A DNA stretch of 64,000 nucleotides, taken from contig CAVVYZ010000015.1 in the NCBI GenBank assembly GCA_963752595.1, positions 160,728 through 224,727 on the forward strand. Direction: 5' to 3'. Every line of letters starts with the position of its first letter. Position 1 is the first letter of the stretch. The stretch comes from an uncultured delta proteobacterium (GTDB lineage: Bacteria > Desulfobacterota > Desulfomonilia > UBA1062). Positions 46,404 to 59,760 of this stretch are shown here, piece by piece. A model generated the notes under the pieces. It was given only the letters and a program-made list of their open reading frames with translations. It did no database searches and was not told the origin of the DNA. A program made the position numbers and the translations under genes.

Positions 46404-49400
46404 ATGAAAGTCTTTCGAGCTCATATACTCGTATGCGGCGGTACCGGCTGCAGGGCAACTGGCAGCGAAGCTGTCAGCCAGGCAGTCGTCAAGGAATTAA
46501 CGGCAAAAGGGCTCTTGGATGAAGTGGCAGTCGTAGAGACAGGATGCAACGGTTTCTGCGCGGCCGGTCCCATCATGGTGATCTATCCCGAGGGCACCTT
46601 CTATCAGTATGTAAAAGCCGATGACGTCAAAGAAATCATCGAAGAGCATATCATCAAGGGAAGGCCGGTCGAGAGGCTCATGTACAAGGAGCCTGTCACC
46701 GAGAAGGCCATTCCCCACATGCTCGATATCCCTTTCTTCGGCAAACAGCAGCTCATCGCGCTCAAGAACAGGGGCCTGATCGATGCGGAAAAGATCGACG
46801 AGTACATCGCCAGGGAAGGTTACACAGGGGCTGCCAAGGCCCTGACCGAGATGACCCCCGAAGATGTCATCGAAGAGGTCAAGAAATCAGGTCTTCGCGG
46901 AAGAGGCGGCGGCGGGTTCCCCACCGGTATGAAGTGGTCCTTTGCACGCAAGTCGAAGGGCGACGTGAAGTACATCCTCTGCAACGCGGACGAAGGCGAC
47001 CCCGGTGCGTTCATGGACCGGTCGGTTCTTGAGGCCGACCCCCATGCAGTGCTCGAAGGCATGATCATCGGCGGTTACGCAATCGGCGCCAAGAAGGGCT
47101 ACATCTACTGCCGCGCCGAATATCCGCTGGCCATTAAGCGCCTCGACCCTCGCTATCGCTCAGGCAAAGGAATACGGGCTGCTCGGTGAAGATATCCTCG
47201 GCTCCGACTACAGCCTGGACATCGAGGTCTACCAGGGCGCAGGCGCATTCGTATGCGGTGAAGAGACCGCGCTGATGGCATCCATCGAGGGCAAGCGCGG
47301 CATGCCCAGGCCCAGACCGCCGTTCCCGGCAAGCCAGGGCTTGTGGAAAAAGCCTTCCGTTCTGAACAACGTCGAGACGTTCGCCAATATCTCCCAGATC
47401 ATCCAGAAGGGCGGGGCATGGTATTCTTCCATCGGAACCGAGCGATCCAAGGGCACCAAGGTGTTCGCTCTGACCGGTGCGGTGAACAATGTGGGTCTGG
47501 TGGAAGTCCCCATGGGAACCCCCATCGGTGATATCATATTCGACATCGGCGGCGGGATCCCTGAAGGCAAGAAGTACAAGGCCGCTCAGCTCGGCGGTCC
47601 TTCCGGCGGATGTATCCCGGCGTCGGCACTAAACACCCCGACCGATTATGAAGAGATTATAAAGCTCGGCGCAATCATGGGCTCGGGCGGCCTCATCGTT
47701 ATGGACGAGGATACCTGCATGGTTGATACGGCCCGGTTCTTCATGGAGTTCTGCCAGGAAGAATCCTGCGGCAAGTGCACCCCGTGCCGTGAAGGCACCA
47801 AGCGCATGCTCGAAATCCTCCACCGGATATGCCATGGAGAAGGCAAGCACGGCGATATCGAGCTCCTCGAAGAACTCGCCGGCATCATCAAAGACTCCGC
47901 GCTCTGCGGCCTCGGCCAGACCGCCCCGAACCCGGTGCTCTCTACCATCCGCTATTTCAGGGATGAGTACGAGGCCCACATCTACGACAAGAAGTGTCCG
48001 GCCGCGGTATGCTCCGCCCTGTTCAAATCACCGTGCCAGCATGCATGCCCCATCGAGATGGATGTCCCGGCCTATATCGCGCTGATCAGGGCAGGACGGC
48101 TCGAGGATGCCTACAAACTCATGCTCAAGACCAACCCGTTCCCCGGGGTATGCGGCCGCGTGTGTCCGCAGTTCTGCTCCAACAAGTGCCGCAGAGGCCA
48201 GCTCGATCAGCCCATGGCCATTGCATGGCTCAAGCGCTACGTTGCAGACAACGGCAGGAAGCCCAAGATCGAGGCTGTGCCCGTTACCCGTAAGGAAAAG
48301 GTCGCGGTCATCGGTGCAGGCCCGGCAGGTCTGACCGCTGCACAGGACCTTGCAAAGCGCGGGTATAAAGTCACCGTGTTCGAAGAGCTCCCCTATGCCG
48401 GCGGTATGATGCGCTATGCGATCCCCGAGTACCGTCTTCCGAGAAACGTCATTGCGGATGAGGTAAAGGATATCGAGGCCTTAGGCGTCGAGATCAGGAC
48501 CAACACTCGCGTCGGCAAAGACATCACCTTCGACAAGCTCAGGAAAGACTATGAGATCGTCGTGATGGCCGTCGGCGCACACAAGAGCTGGACGCTCGAC
48601 ATCGAAGGAGAAGACCTCAAGGGAGTCTGGGGCGCCACCGAGTTCCTCAGGGAAGTCAACTTAGGCAAAGACGTGAAGCTGGGCTCCAAGGTCGCCATCG
48701 TAGGCGGCGGCAACTCTGCCGTTGATGCAGCGCGGACCGCGGTGAGAATGGGCGCGAAAGACGTCACCATCCTTTACCGCAGGGAGCGCAAGGATATGCC
48801 CGCCTGGGAACACGAGATCGTGGCTGCAGAGCACGAGGGCGTGAAGATCGAGTACCTCGTCGCCCCGGTTAAGCTCGTAGGCGAGAACGGCAAGCTGACC
48901 GGCGTTGTCTGCCAGAAAATGAAGCTTGGCGAATTCGACCGTTCCGGAAGGCGCAAACCGGTGCCCGTAAGCGGAAGCGAGTATACGTTGAGCATCGACA
49001 CCATGATCCCGGCCATTTCACAGTCGGCAGATACATCTTTCATACCCGCGGACTCCGACGTGGCAAAGGACAAGCGGGGTGGAATCCAGCTTTCAGCAAA
49101 GAGCAAGAACAAGACTGCAGCAGACGGCGTGTTCATCATCGGCGACGCGGCTACAGGGCCTGCAACGGTTGTTGAGGCCATTGCCATGGGCCATCAGGTG
49201 GCTCGTGACGTGGATGCCTCCATCAGGGCAAAGAACCACGAACCGGCCTACAAAGAACCTGCCGGAGAAAAGATCGAGATACCGTTCGAAGTGAACGAAG
49301 ATCTGGTCGAGACTCCGAAGGCGCTCATGCCCGAGATGGAAGTGGCTGCGCGAGTGGCCGGTTTCGCTGAGGTTGAGCTGGGCTACACCAAGGATATGGC

Positions 49401-49449
49401 GTTCAAAGAGGCATGCAGATGCTTGCGTTGTGATGCAGAGATTTCCTAG
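46404..49449 (+). CDS. NuoF-like HydB/HndC fused to a GltD-like FAD/NAD(P)H module; one frameshift near 47150
   Basis: [45 protein letters not shown], then PCQHACP, CGRVCP, GAGPAG, GGGNSA..YRR, RCLRC. Confidence 0.88.
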
Positions 49450-49485: not shown

Positions 49486-51279
49486 ATGGCTAAAATCAAT
49501 GTCACGATTGATAAAATAAATGTGAGTGTCGAAGAGGGAAGCACGATCCTCGATGCTGCCAAGGCGGCAGGCATCAAGATACCCACCTTGTGCGCGTGGC
49601 CTGAGATCAACCATAAACCCGGTGCATGCAGGGTCTGCACAGTGGAAGTGGACGGCCAGAGAAACCTCGTCGCTTCCTGCGTGTTCCCGGTGAACGAAGG
49701 CATGGTCGTCAGGACCACGACCGACAGGGTGCAGAAGGCAAGGAAGCTCAACGTAGAGCTCCTGCTCTCCAATCATCCGACCGAGTGCAATGTCTGCGTC
49801 AGAAACGGCAACTGCGATCTCCAGAAAGTGGCAGAAGCAGTTGGCTTACGGGAAGTGCGCTTTACGATTCCCCAATACTCGGCAGGATCCATCGATGATT
49901 CGAGCCCGTCCGTGGTTCGCGATTCACGAAAGTGCATCAAGTGCTATCGTTGCGTGACTGTATGCGAAGAAATCCAGACGGTTGCAGTGCTCTCCCCCAC
50001 ATTCCGGGGAAATAATGTCCGCATCGGACCGGCATTCAACCTGCCCCTGGCAGAAACCAACTGCGCCAACTGCGGGCAGTGCATTCTGGCCTGCCCGGTG
50101 GGTGCCCTCTATGAAAAGGATGACACCCATCACGTATGGCAGGTTCTGCAGGATCCCACCAAGCATGTGGTCGTACAGGAAGCGCCCGCAATCCGCGCCG
50201 CTCTGGGCGAGGAGTTCGGAATGCCGGTCGGGTCACTGGTAACCGGCAAAATGATCTCGGCGCTCCGCAGGATGGGTTTCGACAAGGTATTCGACACCAA
50301 CTTCACGGCGGACCTCACGATCATCGAAGAGGGAAACGAGCTTCTCAAACGGGTGAAGGAAGGCGGGACATTGCCGATGATCACCTCCTGCTCGCCCGGC
50401 TGGATCAAGTTCTGCGAGCATTTCTACCCGGATCTTTTGGATAACCTCTCCACCTGCAAATCTCCGCAGCAGATGCTCGGCGCTCTGGCAAAGACCTATT
50501 ACGCCAAGCAGGCAGGCATCGATGCAAAGGATATCGTGGTGGTCTCCGTCATGCCGTGCACGGCCAAGAAATACGAGTGCCGGCGCGATGAGATGGATGG
50601 CAGCGGGTTCCAGGATGTGGACTATGTTCTCACCACCCGCGAGCTCGCCCGGATGATCAAGCAGGCAGGCATCGATTTCGTGAACCTGCCGGACGGCGAC
50701 TATGACAACCCGCTTGGCGAGTATACCGGCGCGGGTACGATATTCGGCGCAACGGGCGGCGTTATGGAAGCTGCCATCAGGACCGTTTATGCGGTAGTAA
50801 CCGGCCGGAACCTCGGCGATATGAACGTTACACCGGTCAGGGGTCTCGATGGAGTCAAGGAGGCGGCGCTCGAAGTAGGCGGCCTCGGTACGGTCAAGGT
50901 TGCAGTGGCCCACGGCTTGAGCAATGCACGAAAGCTCATGGACAAAATCCGTGAAGGTACGGCAGACTATCATTTCATCGAGGTCATGTGCTGTCCCGGA
51001 GGCTGCATCGCAGGCGGCGGCGAGCCGATCCCGACCACGAACGAGATCCGCATGCAGCGGGCTGCAGCGCTCTACAAAGACGACGGCGCCGTACAGAAAT
51101 ACCGCCAGTCCCATGAAAACCCGTCCGTCAAGAGGATCTACGAGGTCTTTCTCAAGGAGCCTCTCGGACATGTATCTCACAAACTGCTGCATACCCACTA
51201 TACGAAGCGCGGAACTGATCTGCCCCATCAAGGGAGAAAGATCGAGATCAAAACAGAGGAAAAGAAATCAGCATATTAG
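49486..51279 (+). CDS. hydA: Group A [FeFe]-hydrogenase catalytic subunit
   Basis: [2Fe-2S], HxxxCxxC, 2x[4Fe-4S]; TSCSPGW, MPCTAKKYE, EVMCCPGGCIAGGG, LLHT. Confidence 0.95.
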   Translation: MAKINVTIDKINVSVEEGSTILDAAKAAGIKIPTLCAWPEINHKPGACRVCTVEVDGQRNLVASCVFPVNEGMVVRTTTDRVQKARKLNVELLLSNHPTECNVCVRNGNCDLQKVAEAVGLREVRFTIPQYSAGSIDDSSPSVVRDSRKCIKCYRCVTVCEEIQTVAVLSPTFRGNNVRIGPAFNLPLAETNCANCGQCILACPVGALYEKDDTHHVWQVLQDPTKHVVVQEAPAIRAALGEEFGMPVGSLVTGKMISALRRMGFDKVFDTNFTADLTIIEEGNELLKRVKEGGTLPMITSCSPGWIKFCEHFYPDLLDNLSTCKSPQQMLGALAKTYYAKQAGIDAKDIVVVSVMPCTAKKYECRRDEMDGSGFQDVDYVLTTRELARMIKQAGIDFVNLPDGDYDNPLGEYTGAGTIFGATGGVMEAAIRTVYAVVTGRNLGDMNVTPVRGLDGVKEAALEVGGLGTVKVAVAHGLSNARKLMDKIREGTADYHFIEVMCCPGGCIAGGGEPIPTTNEIRMQRAAALYKDDGAVQKYRQSHENPSVKRIYEVFLKEPLGHVSHKLLHTHYTKRGTDLPHQGRKIEIKTEEKKSAY

Positions 51280-51280
51280 A

Positions 51281-51417
51281 ACACCCTTGGTATAAGGGAA
51301 ACCGATACCCACGATGAGTGGGAGCCTGCCTGCGAGGAAGGTGAGAGCTGACCTTAAGGGAAGGATAAGTGACTGCACAAGGTCCTTACCGTCCTCGCAT
51401 GGTAAGGGCCTTTTTTT
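51281..51417 (+). promoter_or_regulatory. Candidate attenuator/riboswitch-like leader
   Basis: 51331-51355 is complementary to the 5' arm and loop of the downstream terminator (51379-51399). Confidence 0.6.
51379..51417 (+). terminator. Intrinsic terminator between hydA and the maturase genes
   Basis: aaggtccttaccg-tcctcgca-tggtaagggcctt with T7 tract. Confidence 0.85.
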
Positions 51418-51442
51418 GTAAAAAGGATTCCGGAGGAACTTC

Positions 51443-51700
51443 ATGGAGGACAAGGCAAAGAGAATCGGCGTGGTGAGCATCATCATACGCGACCGGAGGG
51501 AATCCGCCACAGAAGTGAACGGTGTGTTGAGCAGGCACGGAGAGATTATCATCGGCAGGATGGGGCTTCCCTATGAGCAAAAAGGGATAAACATCATTGC
51601 ATTGATCATCCATGGAACCACCGATGAAATAGGTTCCCTTACCGGCCGGCTCGGCTCTTTGAGAGGTGTCGAGGTGAAATCCGCGTTGACCAGGGTGTAA
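51443..51700 (+). CDS. TM1266-family iron-only hydrogenase system putative regulator
   Basis: RIGVVSIII, VNGVLS, IIGRMGLPY, LTGRLGSLRGVEVK; precedes hydG. Confidence 0.88.
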   Translation: MEDKAKRIGVVSIIIRDRRESATEVNGVLSRHGEIIIGRMGLPYEQKGINIIALIIHGTTDEIGSLTGRLGSLRGVEVKSALTRV

Positions 51701-51712
51701 AAAAGGAAGGCA

Positions 51713-53107
51713 ATGGAAGACTTCATCAACGATAGATCACTCTACGAGATATTGGAAGGATCACGGAACCAATCACCCGCCCATGTCAGGGATATTATCG
51801 CGAAATCACGGGATCTCAAAGGGCTTACCCCTGAAGAGGCCGCAGTCCTTCTCCAGGTGGAAGACCCCGAACTCGTTTCCGAGATCTGTGATGCCGCCTA
51901 TGACATCAAAAATTCCATCTACGGCAACCGGCTCGTGATGTTCGCACCGCTCTACACCTCCAATCTCTGCTCGAACAACTGCCTGTACTGCGGATTCAGG
52001 AAGGACAACAAGGACCTGAAGCGCGTGTCTCTCACAAATGAAGAAATTGCAGAAGAGGTGAGGATCCTCGAAAGGCAGGGACACAAGCGCCTCCTCATGC
52101 TCTGTGGCGAATACCGGGGCAGGCATTACCTCGATCGTTTCATCGAGGCCATCGAGATTGCCTATGCAACAAGGACGGAGAAAGGCGGGGAGATCAGGCG
52201 CATCAATGTTGAAGTCGCGCCGCTCGAGGTCGATGATTTCAAACGTCTCAAGCAGGCTGATATCGGCACCTACGTCCTTTTCCAGGAAACATACCACCAC
52301 GAGACCTACCGGGCAATGCACCCGAGCGGGCCCAAGGCAGACTACCTCTGGAGGCTGACCGCCATGGACCGCGCCATGGAGGCGGGGATCAACGATGTGG
52401 GCATCGGGGCTCTGTTCGGGCTCTATGACTACAAGCTCGAGGTGTTGGGTCTCCTCTCCCATGCAAGCCATCTCGACTCCCGGTTCGGGGTAGGTCCCCA
52501 CACCATCTCGGTTCCCAGGCTCGAGCCCGCTCTGAATGCACCGGCGGCCATCCAGCCGCCCAAGCCCGTAAGCAATGCGGAATTCAGGAAACTGGTAGCG
52601 ATCATCCGGGTCGCTGTTCCTTATACCGGGATAATCCTTTCCACCCGCGAACGGCCCGAGGTGCGCAAGGAGGTCTTCAAGGCGGGCGTCTCCCAGATCA
52701 GCGCAGGCTCACGAACCAATCCCGGTGGGTATCACTGCGGCGAAGAAGGCATGGATGACTCAGCCCAGTTCAATCTGGGCGATACCAGGTCGCTCGACGA
52801 GGTCATTCTCGACATCTCGAAACAGGGGCACATACCGAGCTTCTGTACGGCATGCTACCGGCTGGGCCGCACGGGCTCGGATTTCATGGACCTCGCCAAA
52901 CCGGGGCTCATTCAGCGTTTCTGCAGGACCAATGCGATCATCACCTACCAGGAGTACCTCATGGACTACGCATCGGACGAGACGAAGAAGGTTGGAGACA
53001 AGCTTATCAGACGCCTGGTGGAAGAGACGAGCGACAGCAGCACGAGGAACCTTCTCGAAGAGCGTCTGGGCATGATAAAAGGCGGTGAACGTGACCTGTA
53101 TATCTGA
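51713..53107 (+). CDS. hydG: [FeFe]-hydrogenase maturase HydG
   Basis: FAPLYTSNLCSNNCLYC, LFQETYH, PHTISVPR, PSFCTACYR..C. Confidence 0.95.
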   Translation: MEDFINDRSLYEILEGSRNQSPAHVRDIIAKSRDLKGLTPEEAAVLLQVEDPELVSEICDAAYDIKNSIYGNRLVMFAPLYTSNLCSNNCLYCGFRKDNKDLKRVSLTNEEIAEEVRILERQGHKRLLMLCGEYRGRHYLDRFIEAIEIAYATRTEKGGEIRRINVEVAPLEVDDFKRLKQADIGTYVLFQETYHHETYRAMHPSGPKADYLWRLTAMDRAMEAGINDVGIGALFGLYDYKLEVLGLLSHASHLDSRFGVGPHTISVPRLEPALNAPAAIQPPKPVSNAEFRKLVAIIRVAVPYTGIILSTRERPEVRKEVFKAGVSQISAGSRTNPGGYHCGEEGMDDSAQFNLGDTRSLDEVILDISKQGHIPSFCTACYRLGRTGSDFMDLAKPGLIQRFCRTNAIITYQEYLMDYASDETKKVGDKLIRRLVEETSDSSTRNLLEERLGMIKGGERDLYI

Positions 53108-54179
53108 GACTGCATCTCTCCTTGTTCGCGCCCGGCAAGAAAGATCGCTCGGCCGGGAGGAGGTCATCCGCCTCCTGTCGCTTGATTCCCCCGAAGAGAA
53201 GGAGTTCCTCTTTCGCGAGGCAGATGCGGTCCGGAAGGAATGCGTCGGCGACGAGATATATTTGCGCGGCATCGTGGAAATTTCTGCCTTTTGCAGACGG
53301 AACTGCCATTACTGCGGCTTGCGGGCCCAGAACAGTGAGGTGCGCCGCTACCGTATGGAAGATGATGACATCCTTTCCCGTGCCAGGGCCTTGAAAGAAA
53401 AATCCTGCATGACCGTTGTGCTCCAGTCGGGTGAAGACCCGTTCTTTCGCAGGGACTCTCTGTGCTCGCTCATCAGGAGGATCAAGGAAGAGACCGGTCT
53501 CGCTATAACGCTCTCCATCGGGGAAAGGCCGTATGAGGATTATCGCGCCTTTAAGGATGCCGGTGCAGACAGGTATCTTATCAGGCACGAGACCGCCTCC
53601 CCTGAACTTTACCGGACCCTCCACCCGGGTTATGAACTGGAAGACAGGATCGCCTGCCTGAAGATGCTCAAAGATCTCGGCTTTGAAACCGGCTCCGGTT
53701 TTATCGTGGGACTGCCGGGGCAGAGAGTCGATGACCTGGCAGATGATATCCTGCTCGTCAAGAAGCTGGACATCGATATGATCGGGGTCGGTCCGTTCAT
53801 CCCGCATCCCGGAACCCCCTTGGGAAATCACGGGCCAGGGAGTACGGACATGGTTCTTAAAGTCATTGCTGTCTTACGTCTGGTCACAGGGGATACCAAC
53901 ATTCCGGCTACGACAGCCCTGGGCGTCCTCGACCCCGGGGCGAGGGAAAAGGCTTTCTTCGCAGGGGCGAACGTGTTCATGCCGAATTTTACCCCGGAGC
54001 CCTATGCGGAACGGTACGAGATATATCCCGGGAAAGGTCCCGAAGCGGGCGCCATTGCTCATGCTTCGGACGGAGGATTCGAGGCTCTCTTCGAAGACAT
54101 TGGACGGCCGGTGAGTACCTGGTACGGCTATCGGAAAAGAATAATGAATAAAATGAAGATCGACCATGAACGGGGATAG
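53085..54179 (+). CDS. hydE: [FeFe]-hydrogenase maturase HydE
   Basis: CRRNCHYC, VLQSGED, RYLIRHET, GPFIPHPGTP, ATTA, GANVFMPN, YEIYPGK. Confidence 0.93.
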   Translation: MNVTCISETASLLVRARQERSLGREEVIRLLSLDSPEEKEFLFREADAVRKECVGDEIYLRGIVEISAFCRRNCHYCGLRAQNSEVRRYRMEDDDILSRARALKEKSCMTVVLQSGEDPFFRRDSLCSLIRRIKEETGLAITLSIGERPYEDYRAFKDAGADRYLIRHETASPELYRTLHPGYELEDRIACLKMLKDLGFETGSGFIVGLPGQRVDDLADDILLVKKLDIDMIGVGPFIPHPGTPLGNHGPGSTDMVLKVIAVLRLVTGDTNIPATTALGVLDPGAREKAFFAGANVFMPNFTPEPYAERYEIYPGKGPEAGAIAHASDGGFEALFEDIGRPVSTWYGYRKRIMNKMKIDHERG

Positions 54180-55572
54180 GCGAATGAGAAGGGAAAAAGA
54201 TTCGCTCGGCTTTCACGACATTCCGGAAGAATGCTATTACGGGATCCATACAATGAGGGCCCTGGATAATTTCGGAAGGGGCTCCGAAAGCCATGATCCT
54301 TTCTTCGTTACCGGATACCTCCGGATAAAGAAGGCAGCGGCCCTTGCGAATGCAGAGATCGGCGCGCTGGAATCCGAGAAAAGCGGGTTCATTGTCGAAG
54401 CCATAGACGAGCTCATAGAAGGGGGGAATTACACGGACATCGTAGTGAACCCCCTGAGCGGCGGCGCAGGGACTTCGCTCAACATGAACGTCAATGAGGT
54501 CATTGCAAACCATGCCCTGGAAAGGGCGGGAAGAGCCAAGGGCGATTATGAATATATCCATCCGCTCAACCATGTGAACCTCCACCAGTCCACCAACGAC
54601 ACCTATCCCTCTGCTTTCAGGATCGCCGTCCTCATGCACCTGAACCGGTTGGAAAAAGGGCTCGTCGGCCTGCAAGGATCTCTCCAGGCAAAGGAAAAAG
54701 ATTTCGCCACTGTTCTCAAGCTCGGCCGCACCGAGCTCCAGGATGCATTGCCCATGACCGTGGGCATGCAGTTCGCTGCATATGCAGAGGCCGTTGCCCG
54801 GGACCGGTGGAGGATCTTCAAGGCACGCGAGAGGATCAAGGTCCTGAACATCGGCGGGACTGCAATCGGTACGGGTTTCAATGCACCGCAGAAATATATC
54901 TTTACCGTGGTCGACAAGCTGAAAAACATCACCGGCCTGAACATCACCAGGGCAGAGAACATGGTGGATGCCACCCAGAACCTCGATGCCGTGGTAGAGG
55001 TTTCCGGGCTCATGAAAACCCTGGCAGTGAATCTCATGAAGGTCTCCGAAGATATCAGGCTCCTGTCCTCAGGACCTGCGGGCGGGATCGGAGAGCTCGT
55101 CATAGAGCCGCTGCAGGAAGGATCTTCCATCATGCCGGGCAAGGTCAACCCGGTGATGCTCGAGTTCGTGACCCAGGTCTCGCTCCTGGTCATGGCCCAT
55201 GACAGCGCCATTTCCCATGCCTGCAGCCTGGGCAACCTCGAGCTCAACCAGTTCTATCCTTTGGTTGCAAGCCTCATGCTCAAGGACTTCCAAATGCTCT
55301 TCCAGGCAGTGGAAGGCCTTGACGGGAAAGTGATACAGGGCATCAGGATAAATACGGAAAAGCTTAAACAGCACATGGATAATTCAGTTGCACTGCTCAC
55401 CTACCTCTCGCAGTACATCGGGCATGACAAGGCAGCGGATGTGTATATGCAGATGAAGTCTACCGGGCAATCCTTGAAAGATATCATCATCAAAGAACGT
55501 ATACTTACGGAAGGCAAGTTCGAAGAGCTGACTGCACCGGAGCGTATCATAATGATGGGGTACAGGCCATGA
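54166..55572 (+). CDS. aspA: Aspartate ammonia-lyase
   Basis: [43 protein letters not shown]. Confidence 0.88.
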
Positions 55573-56785
55573 ATACGACACCCATAGCCAACAGGCTGCA
55601 CATAGGAATATTCGGTAAACGGAACGTAGGGAAATCTTCGTTCATCAATGCCGTTACAGGCCAGCATCTCTCCATCGTATCGGACGTGCCGGGAACCACG
55701 ACCGATCCGGTCGGAAAGGCTATGGAGATCAGCGGCATCGGTGCGGTATACCTCTATGATACCGCCGGCCTGGACGATATCGGCAACCTCGGAGAGAGAG
55801 AGCGTCCCGGACGCGGGACATCATGTCGAAAATCAACCTTGCAGTCATGATTACGACCCCTGATGATTATGACGACTTCGACGAAGGACTCATCACAGAG
55901 CTCTCGGAAAGGAAGATCCCCGTCCTCATGGTTTTCAACAAATCCGACCTGGGAGGTTTGAGCGATGCCGTCATGGGAAGGATCGGCCGGTTTTCACTGC
56001 CATGGCTGCAGGTAAGCAGCAAAACCGGCGAGAACATCGAGCAGGCAAAGATGATGATCTCCAAGGCCGGCAGCGCCGTTCAGGTGGAGCGGGACACCAT
56101 CTTGGGAGATATCATATCCCACGGTGATACCGTTCTTCTCATAGTGCCCATCGACCTCGGAGCCCCGAAGGGAAGGCTCATCCTTCCGCAGGTGCAGGTC
56201 ATCAGGGACATCCTCGACAACGATGCCGTTGCCGTCACGGCCAAGGAGCGGGAGATCGAATACGTGCTGCAGAACCTGAAGATAAAACCCGCTCTCGTAA
56301 TATGCGATTCGCAGGTGGTCCTCAAGGTCTCGGGCGACATACCGGAGGACGTAAAATTCACGACATTCTCTATCCTGTTCTCCAGGCAGAAAGGCGAGCT
56401 GGCGACCTTTGTCAGAGGGGTACGGCAGATCGATGCCCTTCAGGACGGAGACAAGGTGCTCATCATGGAAGCCTGCACCCACCACCCCCTTCCCGATGAC
56501 ATCGGAAGGGTTAAGATACCCCGGTGGATCAAGCTCTATAGGGGAAAGGAAATCATCTTTGACGTCAACGCCGGCCCGTACCGCGATAAAGATATGTCGG
56601 AATACAAACTCATCATCCACTGCGGGGGCTGCATGATCAACAGAGCTGAGATGCTCCACCGGATCGGAGAGGCTGAAGACATGCAGGTACCCATTACGAA
56701 TTACGGCATCGCGATCTCGTACGTTCACGGGGTGCTTCAACGGGCGTTGTCGCCGTTTCCCTACGAGAGCAGCCTCCTTGAGTGA
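55569..56785 (+). CDS. hydF: [FeFe]-hydrogenase maturase GTPase HydF; one frameshift near 55810
   Basis: [48 protein letters not shown]. Confidence 0.93.
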
Positions 56786-57050: not shown

Positions 57051-59760
57051 GTGAGGGATATTATGGCAATGACCATAGACGGCAAGAAGTGTGAGTTCAA
57101 ACCAGGGCAGACAGTCTATGAGGTGGCAAAGGAGAATGGGATTTATATCCCGGTGCTGTGCCATCATGACCAGATAAAGCCGGTTGGTGCGTGCAGGGTG
57201 TGCGTGGTAGAGGTCGAAAAAGCACGGTCCCTGATCGCTTCCTGCGCCATGCCTGCTGAGGAAGGGATGATTGTCCATACCAACACCCAGCGGGTGCTCA
57301 GCTCACGGAAGCTATCGGTAGAGCTTCTCCTGACTCAGGGGCATCATAACTGCATCACCTGCGAGAGCAGCGGTGCCTGCGTCCTGCAGGACCTCGTCTA
57401 CTCCCTGGGCATAGATTCACCGCGGTTCAGCGAACCTGAAACGGTCAAGGAGCTCGAACAGGCCAACGAAATGATCGTACGCGACATGAACAAATGCGTG
57501 CTCTGCGGTCTCTGTGTCAGGGCCTGCAACGAGATCCAGGTCAATCAGGTTCTGGATTACGGCGGAAGAGGGCCGACCGCGAGCGTGGGTCCGGCATTCG
57601 GCCTCACCTATGAAAATTCCGACTGCGTATTCTGCGGCGAGTGCGTCCGGGTATGTCCGGTGGGAGCGCTCTTCGAAAAGCAGGGCCGTTTCAAGGGAAG
57701 GGCAGAGCGATCTCGAACTGGTGAGGACGACCTGCGGATACTGCGGGGTCGGCTGCCAGATGGACATAAATATCAAAGACGGCAAGTCGTCAAGGTCACC
57801 ACGCCCGGGAGGACGCCCCGCAGCCGAACAACGGCAGCCTGTGCATCAAGGGCCGCTTCGGCTACGATTTCGTAGACCACCCGGACAGGCTCACCAAGCC
57901 CCTGATCAGGGTAGACGGCGAGCTCAAGGAAGCGACCTGGGAAGAGGCAGTCAGCTATGTGGCTGAAAAGCTCAAGACCATAAAGGAAAAGTCCGGCCCC
58001 GACGCCATTGCAGGGTTTACCTCTGCGCGATGTACGAACGAAGAGAACTATCTCTTCCAGAAATTTATGCGCGCGGTGATCGGCACCAACAACGTCGATC
58101 ACTGCGCCCGACTCTGACACAGCTCCACCGTGGCCGGTCTGGCCACAGCATTCGGTTCCGGCGCAATGACGAACTCCATCGCGGATCTCGAGCAGTCCGA
58201 GTGCTTCCTGATCACCGGCACCAACACCACCGAGAACCACCCGTGATCTCCACCTTCATTAAGCGGGCAGTAACCCAGCAGGGCGCAAAGCTCATCCTGG
58301 CGGACCCGAGGAACATCGAGCTGGCGAAATTCGCCACTGTCTGGCTCAGGCAGAAGCCGGGCACCGACATCGCCTGGATCAACGGCCTCATGAACGTAAT
58401 CATCAGCGAAGGCCTTCAGAACGAAGAATTCATCGCCGAGCGCACCGAGAACTTCGAAGCGGTCAAGGAGACGGTGAAGAAATATACACCGGAATACGTG
58501 GAAAAAATAACCGGCATCCCGGCAGAGGATCTCAAAAAGGCCGCGCGTCTCTATGCCAACGTCGCGCTGCATCGGCCATCGTCTATGCCATGGGCATTAC
58601 CCAGCACATCAACGGCACCGACAACGTGAAGTCGCTTGCCAATCTGTCCATGCTGACCGGCAAGATCGGAGGCCGGGAACCGGCGTCAACCCCTTGAGGG
58701 GCCAGAACAACGTGCAGGGCGCCTGCGACATGGGCGGCCTGCCTGGGAACGCTGCCGGCATATAAAAAGGTGGCTGAGGCAGCCGAGCGCAAACCCTTCG
58801 AAGATGCATGGGGAACGTGCGCTGCCGGTCAAGCCCGGCCTCACAATACCCAAAATTATTGAAGGGGCGGGGAAAGAAACGGTTAAGGCGCTCTAGGTCA
58901 TGGGCGAAAACCCCATGATGTCCGATCCGGACATCGACCATGTAGAAGAAGGCGCTTCAAGAAGCTCGATCTGCTCGTGGTGCAGGATATCTTCCTCACC
59001 GAGACAACGGAGATCGCTCATGTGGTGCTGCCGACGCGCGGCCTGGGCAGAAAAAGACGGGACATTCACCAATACGGAGCGCAGGGTGCAGCGGGTGCGA
59101 AAGGCTGTTCAGACGCACCGGGAGAAGCCCGTGACGACTGGCAGATCATCAGCATGCTCGCGAATAAGATCGGGTGCGACTGGAGCTATGCGTCTCCGAA
59201 AGAGATCATGGAAGAGATCAACAAGGTAACTCCTTCCTATGCAGGGATCACATATCGACCGTATCAGAAAAGGCCGGGATCCAGTGGCCGTGCCTGAACA
59301 CGGAACACCCGGGCACACCCATACTCCATTCCGTTGCCTTCACCAGGGGCAAGGGACTGTTCTCCGTGTGCGAGCATATACCGCCGGCGAGAAGAGCCTG
59401 ACAAGGAGTTCCCGTTCATTCTCACAACAGGCAGGATCCTCTACCAGTACCATACCGCCACCATGAGCCGCCGATCAAAGGGTCTTGTATCCAGGACGCC
59501 CGAGGCGTTCATCGAGATCAATTCCCAAGATGCAGAGAGCTCTCGGAATAAACCAGGGCGACACGATCGAAGTATCATCGAGAAGGGGCTCCATCACGTA
59601 TCCGCCGATATGTCCGAACAAGTGCGAAAAGGGAGTTGTGTTCATACCGTTTCATTACAGCGAGGCAGCGGCGAACAAACTTACGATCACGGCGATCGAC
59701 CCGGTTGCAAACATCCCAGAATATAAGGTATGCGCTGTAAATGTTCATAAAGTAGGTTAA
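57051..59760 (+). CDS. fdhF: Selenocysteine-containing Mo/W-bisPGD formate dehydrogenase alpha subunit; frameshifted
   Basis: [2Fe-2S], HxCxxC, 2x[4Fe-4S], [55 protein letters not shown]. Confidence 0.92.
58115..58146 (+). other. In-frame UGA (Sec) with bacterial SECIS hairpin
   Basis: TGA 58115-58117 at the catalytic Cys/Sec position; GTGGCC-GGTCT-GGCCAC at 58130-58146. Confidence 0.9.

Follow-up and report, generated by a model that had tools for sequence, protein, structure and literature searches.

The leader between hydA and the [FeFe]-hydrogenase maturation genes of an uncultured delta proteobacterium contains a small, predicted symmetric hairpin, which we consider, with moderate confidence, to be an attenuator that depends on the protein TM1266 and switches the maturase genes off according to cofactor status. 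The element, its conservation and covariation, the terminator and the alternative pairing are results of computation; binding by TM1266, the gating ligand and the regulatory outcome are inferred.

The window, i.e. the whole stretch of DNA analysed, comprises 64,000 nt. On its forward strand, hydA (49486-51279) encodes the catalytic subunit of a group A6 NADH-dependent [FeFe]-hydrogenase (NF040763, 907 bits with a cut-off of 765). After a gap of 163 nt follow a gene for a TM1266-family protein of 85 aa with a stand-alone ACT/NikR-C fold (51443-51700; TIGR03959, 109.2 bits with a cut-off of 60.8; PF21699, 103.5 with a cut-off of 27; structural homologue 2NZC), hydG (51713-53107; TIGR03955, 538 bits), hydE (53085-54179; TIGR03956, 333 bits), a gene for an aspA-type ammonia-lyase (54166-55572; NF008909, 581 bits) and hydF (55569-56785), which is present as two reading frames in this assembly with matches to TIGR03918 on both pieces. 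These profile matches agree with the order TM1266-hydG-hydE-aspA-hydF given by the initial annotation, and place it downstream of the group A6 hydA, a possible source of read-through transcription into the leader. According to passages of PMC11736057, aspA is a known companion of the maturases and can supply nitrogen for the dithiomethylamine ligand. Close homologues with named records are titled Desulfomonilia, Deltaproteobacteria or Syntrophales.

A predicted hairpin with two identical internal loops

The conserved unit is a predicted hairpin of 32 nt (51329-51360, plus strand), which consists of two copies of one strand, CCUG(A/C)-N4-RAGG. Strand 1 (51329-51342, CCUGC-N4-AAGG-U) is separated from strand 2 (51347-51360, GCUGA-N4-AAGGG) by an apical loop (51343-51346) that differs in length and sequence among homologues, and the N4 centre of strand 2 pairs with that of strand 1. 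Both strands retain C-U-G and A-G-G. Each half-site consists of a C-G pair, a U.G pair, a G opposite A and then an A or C opposite mostly a purine, with two identical internal loops in the hairpin as a whole. The core of Bacillota TM1266 leaders is made of two copies of the strand (C)CUG(A/C)-N3-5-RAGG(G). The non-canonical pairs are retained in nearly all sequences (U.G in 33 of 33, G.U in 31 of 33), which fits an RNA. Kink-turns consist of a 3-nt bulge followed by tandem G.A pairs; the element was rejected as a member of this class, since both internal loops are symmetric (2x2) and contain no bulge (alignment A4).

The initial annotation had proposed a short local hairpin within 51325-51341. 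Covariation instead backs the long hairpin of 51329-51342 with 51347-51360. In 33 hand-picked sequences with 4-nt centres, a set chosen partly by pairing, 95.2% of the cells in the N4 centres are paired and 67 are compensatory, i.e. changed on both sides, compared to 16.0 in shuffled data. The covariation value is 0.571 (0.141 shuffled), and every slid register is worse (best 0.170). Because the set was partly selected on pairing, a pairing-blind pattern was also run over metagenomes and gave at least 118 loci. Among the matches listed, the 11 distinct maturase-linked ones pair in 38 of 44 centre cells (19.8 on average in permuted data; 0 of 5000 permutations), compared to 92 of 344 for 86 others and 13 of 40 for 10 short ones. 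An initial pairing-blind test, run on leaders from Bacillota and with 8 pairs only, gave 24 of 32 paired cells (8 of 20000 permutations). For a looser pattern, used as background in viral collections, 143 of 368 cells are paired (138.5 permuted).

Covariation also bears on the direction of the switch. Protein binding could turn the genes on by remodelling the element in an ANTAR-like manner, e.g. into two mini-hairpins: each strand can close a mini-hairpin of 3 bp (92.9% paired), and some leaders hold three or four copies of the strand. We regard such ON logic as very improbable, since the twin-hairpin fold shows 0 compensatory changes against 67 in the long hairpin, a result on which twin mini-hairpins were rejected, and the long hairpin is compatible with the terminator. 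The ANTAR protein EutV (PMC3369931) resembles our proposal in that a dimer recognises a small RNA which presents two similar surfaces and lies upstream of a terminator. Its targets are two 3-bp hairpins whose hexaloops carry A1 and G4, and it switches genes on. Here, in contrast, the two units pair with each other, G would be the first base in the loops of the mini-hairpins, and the switch is predicted to turn genes off. The missing covariation of the twin fold and the G at the start of its loops led us to reject the element as an ANTAR target.

Terminator and antiterminator

Two further features that had been proposed hold up, namely a strong terminator ahead of TM1266 and an antiterminator of about 20 bp. 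The intrinsic-terminator-like hairpin with its U-tract (51379-51417, plus strand) consists of a 14-bp stem (51379-51412, about -21 kcal/mol) and seven T (51411-51417), and ends 25 nt upstream of the ATG at 51443; as in transcriptional attenuators, an intrinsic terminator lies between the leader and the first gene. The antiterminator segment (51331-51355, plus strand) overlaps the hairpin and pairs with the 5' arm and loop of the terminator over 20 bp (51331-51338 with 51392-51399, 51340-51345 with 51385-51390, 51350-51355 with 51379-51384). The energy of this duplex is -29.8 kcal/mol, compared to -18.8 +/- 2.8 kcal/mol for dinucleotide shuffles, of which 0 of 1000 are as good. The predicted hairpin and the terminator can fold together, and the hairpin competes with the antiterminator. 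Within 51322-51420 the energies of the two states hardly differ (-37.8 kcal/mol for hairpin plus terminator, -38.7 kcal/mol for the antiterminator), and the computed ensemble is about 98:2 in favour of the antiterminator. The whole leader region has a folding z of -3.6. Because the ensemble favours the antiterminator, the leader of the window would be expected to read through as long as no stabiliser holds the hairpin.

An intrinsic terminator is present in 21 of 23 Desulfobacterota leaders and in 30 of 38 other leaders. Among those having a terminator, the element makes at least 6 pairs with the terminator arm or loop in 20 of 21 and in 22 of 30, respectively, the pairing being computed with the terminator half-transcribed and compared with 60 shuffles per leader. 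It beats all but 3 of the 60 shuffles in 16 of the 21 Desulfobacterota leaders, which speaks for conservation of a mutually exclusive antiterminator in that phylum, but in only 11 of the 30 others. Cognate element-terminator pairs (-22.1) are hardly better than non-cognate ones (-20.6), and the cognate pair is best in 2 of 23 cases, which are close kin. At full length, the terminated state is ahead by about 4-14 kcal/mol in 20 of 23 leaders; read-through there must therefore be kinetic.

Six leaders of a second family carry a variant hairpin; they retain the alternative pairing, and most have no clear intrinsic terminator. The purine-rich 3' strand is likely the ribosome site in L203 and L446, where it is located 4-7 nt upstream of the start codon. 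Since the hairpin can coexist with the terminator and in some leaders masks the ribosome site, its formation likely corresponds to the OFF state on both the transcriptional and the translational platform.

The 5' part of the leader

A multi-stem domain (cacc/ggtg, ccctt/aaggg, cccac/gtggg) had been assigned to the leader upstream of the hairpin, and is not conserved outside the genus. A BLAST search over 61 genomes gave three matches, all from the same genus and beginning only at about 51320-51325, and in most relatives the hydA stop is separated from the hairpin core by only 15-50 unrelated bases. On these two grounds the domain was rejected as part of the conserved element. Of the switch postulated to gate the maturases, the notion of an uncatalogued transcriptional switch is borne out by conservation, covariation and energetics; its sensing domain had been drawn too large.

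Outside the genus the stretch 51281-51322 shows no conservation, and its sequence is more suggestive of a promoter. A weak sigma-70-type promoter is possible at 51287-51315 (plus strand), with a -35 hexamer at 51287-51292, a 17-nt spacer and a -10 hexamer at 51310-51315; a promoter scan did not call it. In L004, from the same genus, a perfect -10 lies at a similar distance, and the -35- and -10-like hexamers that are weak in the window are perfect there. The argument that there is little room for a separate promoter holds downstream of the terminator, where 25 nt remain, but not upstream of the hairpin. Directly upstream of the element, a -10-like hexamer occurs in 9 of 22 leaders from Desulfobacterota, as against 1 of 22 at positions further upstream. 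Outside Desulfobacterota such an enrichment is not seen (15 of 40, versus 10 and 12 in controls).

Such hexamers, as well as the fact that the element is a direct repeat in sequence, would suit a DNA operator situated just downstream of a promoter, the terminator merely ending the hydA transcript. A DNA operator gives no reason for reverse-complementary N4 centres or invariant U.G pairs, the terminator would stand between element and genes, and TM1266 has no DNA-binding domain; we give this reading very little credence and retain that of an RNA element.

Occurrence of the element

Among 122 genomes of the class, the hairpin core precedes all 25 TM1266 genes above the cut-off and none of the 5 sub-cut-off paralogues, a descriptive count, as the pattern was drawn from the same 25 leaders. 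An exact-pattern scan of GTDB gave 24 loci. Of these, 21 precede TM1266, one precedes aspA and one a decayed remnant of hydF; the last (L070) lies antisense inside a gene and is read as a chance match, though the model assigns it an E-value of 1.9e-5. In the genome of the window, model R1 finds one site and no second one. At E<1e-3 it finds 20 of the 122 class genomes, many of which contributed training sequences, namely 19 with TM1266 as well as G024 (98% complete). The locus of G024 is decayed: element and terminator survive before the hydF remnant (L051), and hydG, hydE, hydF and TM1266 were not found in the genome.

In Bacillota, 33 of 71 TM1266 leaders were scored as having the paired form, at least two of them apparently by chance, compared to 0 of 71 reverse complements and 18 of 710 shuffles; the scores of the other 38 lie below threshold. 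Across 150 Bacillota genomes, model R1 also matches ahead of hydG or hydE in cases in which a different operon contains TM1266. With a threshold of E<=0.04, matches are present in 25 of 62 genomes that have both hydG and TM1266 versus 0 of 14 with hydG only, with the restriction that kin are not independent and some top matches are false, e.g. that of G648. No element was found in 14 stretches upstream of hydG from 13 of these 14 hydG-only genomes. Some Bacillota leaders (L085, L095, L100, L101, L110) hold three or four copies of the strand, i.e. tandem hairpins. In many Bacillota (L093, L098, L099, L103, L105, L108, L109, L114, L115, L134, L141), TM1266 is located away from the hyd genes and has no leader; the genes ahead of it presumably belong to a cell-division region (divIVA/ylm-like).

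In a sample of 251 Desulfobacterota, 45 genomes have a hydG-like gene and 10 have TM1266. The element precedes TM1266 in 8 of the 10, a possible one precedes hydG in G294, and none was found in G269. The 38 genomes with a hydG-like gene and no TM1266, many of which may carry HydG-like enzymes rather than true maturases, gave seven weak matches and none in a maturase leader. Two genomes without TM1266 are possible exceptions: G246 (100% complete) has a weak element right before hydG (18.3 bits), and G251 (79% complete) has an element of good appearance at the end of a contig. No element was seen in genomes without TM1266 in which hydF or hydE adjoins hydG, and the viral collections yielded no TM1266 and one pattern match, which lies inside a gene. 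With the two possible exceptions, the RNA element co-occurs with its candidate cognate protein, as is the case for PyrR, TRAP and HutP, in an association that is confounded by kinship, operon linkage and a model trained on TM1266 leaders.

Three genomes (G197, G230 and G292, 99-100% complete) keep the element, TM1266, hydE and hydF and lack hydG. Because the element is kept there, tyrosine and other HydG-specific ligands are disfavoured, which argues against a substrate or product of HydG as the signal.

A protein-free riboswitch, in which a small ligand would occupy the two identical internal loops and TM1266 would be only a co-regulated maturation helper, is an unlikely reading of this distribution. 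Candidate ligands would be a metal, a cofactor intermediate, a CO/CN-related species or a SAM-derived product. Pseudo-symmetric aptamers with two ligands do exist (c-di-AMP, guanidine-II), and the invariant non-canonical pairs, the use of transcriptional as well as translational platforms, a regulon of biosynthesis genes and transporters as in cofactor riboswitches, and the possible elements in two genomes without TM1266 would all suit such a switch. The hairpin is, however, very small and unbranched, with a central helix and loop that vary freely, and the element is largely not found in hydG genomes without TM1266 and persists in genomes that have no hydG. The hairpin follows the distribution of TM1266 and not that of hydG, for which reason we favour a protein over a free ligand as the reader. 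The broader suggestion that the leader responds to a ligand or a protein is narrowed accordingly: the protein is favoured, and tyrosine, one of the ligands named, is disfavoured by the hydG-less genomes.

The reader could also be another binder of the attenuator (HydF, HydE, apo-HydA or a general RNA-binding protein), with TM1266 as an accessory or adaptor. All three hydG-less genomes with the element retain hydF and hydE, and the element is also found before aspA, hydG or hydE in the absence of an adjoining TM1266. We consider this quite improbable, since no element occurs in genomes that have hydF or hydE beside hydG and lack TM1266, and take TM1266 itself as the preferred reader.

TM1266 and the proposed mechanism

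The predicted fold of TM1266 is a lone ACT/NikR-C domain (pLDDT 93), which resembles NikR-C (Foldseek E-value 7e-6, TM about 0.73-0.83) with a weak match to the Pfam family NikR_C; the homologue 2NZC has four chains. In 46 TM1266 sequences, R7, N26, G38, R39, M40, G41 and P43 are invariant, and no Cys or His is conserved. NikR combines a ribbon-helix-helix domain with a His/Cys nickel site. TM1266 is therefore like the C-terminal metal-binding/ACT domain of NikR in fold but differs from it in its invariant arginines, and was rejected as a NikR, as it consists of the ACT fold only, with neither a ribbon-helix-helix nor conserved His or Cys. ACT folds often bind small ligands at subunit interfaces. 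We know of no attenuator protein with an ACT fold.

In the mechanism we propose, each of the two identical internal loops would serve as the half-site for one subunit of a symmetric protein, which is probably an oligomer of TM1266. If TM1266 belongs to an unrelated operon, the hairpin is instead found ahead of hydG or hydE, which suggests that the protein acts in trans and requires a gating signal. Binding would probably be gated by a ligand or partner, most likely the precursor of the [2Fe] cofactor or its loading on HydF or HydA. When bound to the hairpin, probably only in the presence of a signal for finished cofactor, TM1266 would allow the terminator to form, and hydG-hydE-aspA-hydF would then not be transcribed. 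A more specific version, namely that TM1266 senses the organometallic [2Fe] precursor of the H-cluster (or its loading on HydF) and is the first RNA-binding attenuator with an ACT fold, or else that the hairpin itself binds the precursor, is speculative and in our judgement possible but doubtful. If it were true, the regulon would comprise the maturases together with two uptake systems for the cofactor or its building blocks, an ECF S-component and an ABC importer, and HypE/HypC would be flagged as a substitute source of ligands in hydG-less genomes. In Thermotoga neapolitana under CO2, the regulator, hydG and hydE are up 6-7.5-fold and hydA 1.8-fold (passages of PMC7039931), which shows separate control of the maturases and does not tell the mechanism.

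The literature searched gave no account of how bacteria match the expression of H-cluster maturases to need, and TM1266 has so far been annotated only as a 'putative regulator'. If the attenuator is real, it represents a widespread family of regulatory RNAs and a new RNA-binding role for the ACT fold, marks unrecognised maturation genes (the ECF S-component, an SsuA-like ABC system, and HypE/HypC in hydG-less genomes), and offers a route to de-repress the maturases for biological hydrogen production. The test system is small: a protein of 85 aa with a solved homologue (2NZC) and an RNA of 32 nt.

Relation to known RNA families

No known RNA class was recognised in the leader, in line with the initial annotation: a check against the covariance models of Rfam 15 gave 0 matches in the window, apart from a chance match to the terminator (E 2.5), and at E<=1 no match fell on the element in 20 homologous loci. 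The sole Rfam match on an element-bearing leader is anti-hemB in L135, with 24 bits compared to a cut-off of 49.5. No Rfam 15 family, including TPP, Moco, cobalamin, T-box, the SAM classes and the PyrR leader, reached its gathering cut-off, and resemblances to TPP, SAM-III, Moco and boxB RNAs, seen by eye, were dropped as no model matched. TPP, Moco/Wco and cobalamin riboswitches and T-boxes share with the present leader a terminator/antiterminator arrangement before cofactor genes and ECF or ABC transporters; the element differs in that it is far smaller, unbranched, matches no covariance model and tracks a specific protein.

PyrR and HutP are small ligand-gated proteins, often encoded in the operon, that act on its leader. 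Like PyrR (pyr, RF00515), TRAP (trp) and HutP (hut), the proposed system relies on a ligand-gated small protein that tips the balance between terminator and antiterminator. The closest logic is that of PyrR, where the bound hairpin blocks the antiterminator and the genes are OFF. Unlike these three systems, the RNA is a pseudo-two-fold hairpin with two identical internal loops and no Rfam match, the candidate protein adopts an ACT/NikR-C fold, and the pathway concerned assembles a metallocofactor. By membership tests, the proposed switch works like PyrR-type attenuation, yet stands outside the Rfam families, ANTAR, kink-turns and NikR.

We found no description of the element in the literature searched. 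The main text of Narunsky 2024 (PMC11109978) holds no relevant passage, and its supplement, which lay outside the search, might list the element; the supplements of Stav 2019 (PMC6429828), in the text form of 11 files, contain none of six hyd terms, and the terms searched are absent from PMC12591593.

Further genomic observations

[FeFe]-hydrogenase, hydE, hydF and aspA genes, and no hydG, are found in G292 (L525:1712-2743), G197 (L526:150-1499) and G230 (L524), an observation to which loci L544 and L545 also belong. In two of the three hydG-less genomes, the element and TM1266 are immediately followed by hypE (TIGR02124), and in G197 then by hypC, an arrangement that may provide a HydG-independent source of the CN/CO ligands; in two of the three, a protein with the nucleotide-binding motif GKGGIGKS is encoded after hydE. 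Several elements are associated with transport. In G555 (L446:1543-2034) the element precedes a lone ECF S-component (PF12822), and in G532 (L442:934-1491) and G580 (L461:248-805) it precedes apparent S-component homologues that match no family; all these genomes have hydG. A further element in G532 (L478) stands ahead of an SsuA/TauA-like ABC importer, which shares a transcript with TM1266-hydE-hydF. In G580, a sub-threshold match to the guanidine-I riboswitch (50.4 bits, cut-off 63) lies downstream of hydE (L431:2866-2964).

In the window (51284-51322) and in L002, L003 and L004, the hexamers resembling -35 and -10 are flanked by two CCC-N9/10-GGG inverted repeats, possibly a pair of operators or else small hairpins at the 3' end of hydA. 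The genes hydB (46404-49449), hydF (55569-56785) and a downstream formate-dehydrogenase-like gene (57051-59760) are each frame-split, and so are several upstream genes; these splits are probably assembly indels. HydA (49486-51279) carries a variant of the L1 motif, TSCSPGW, and the NuoF-like HydB subunit (47275-49449) is fused to a GltD-like NAD(P)H/FAD module.
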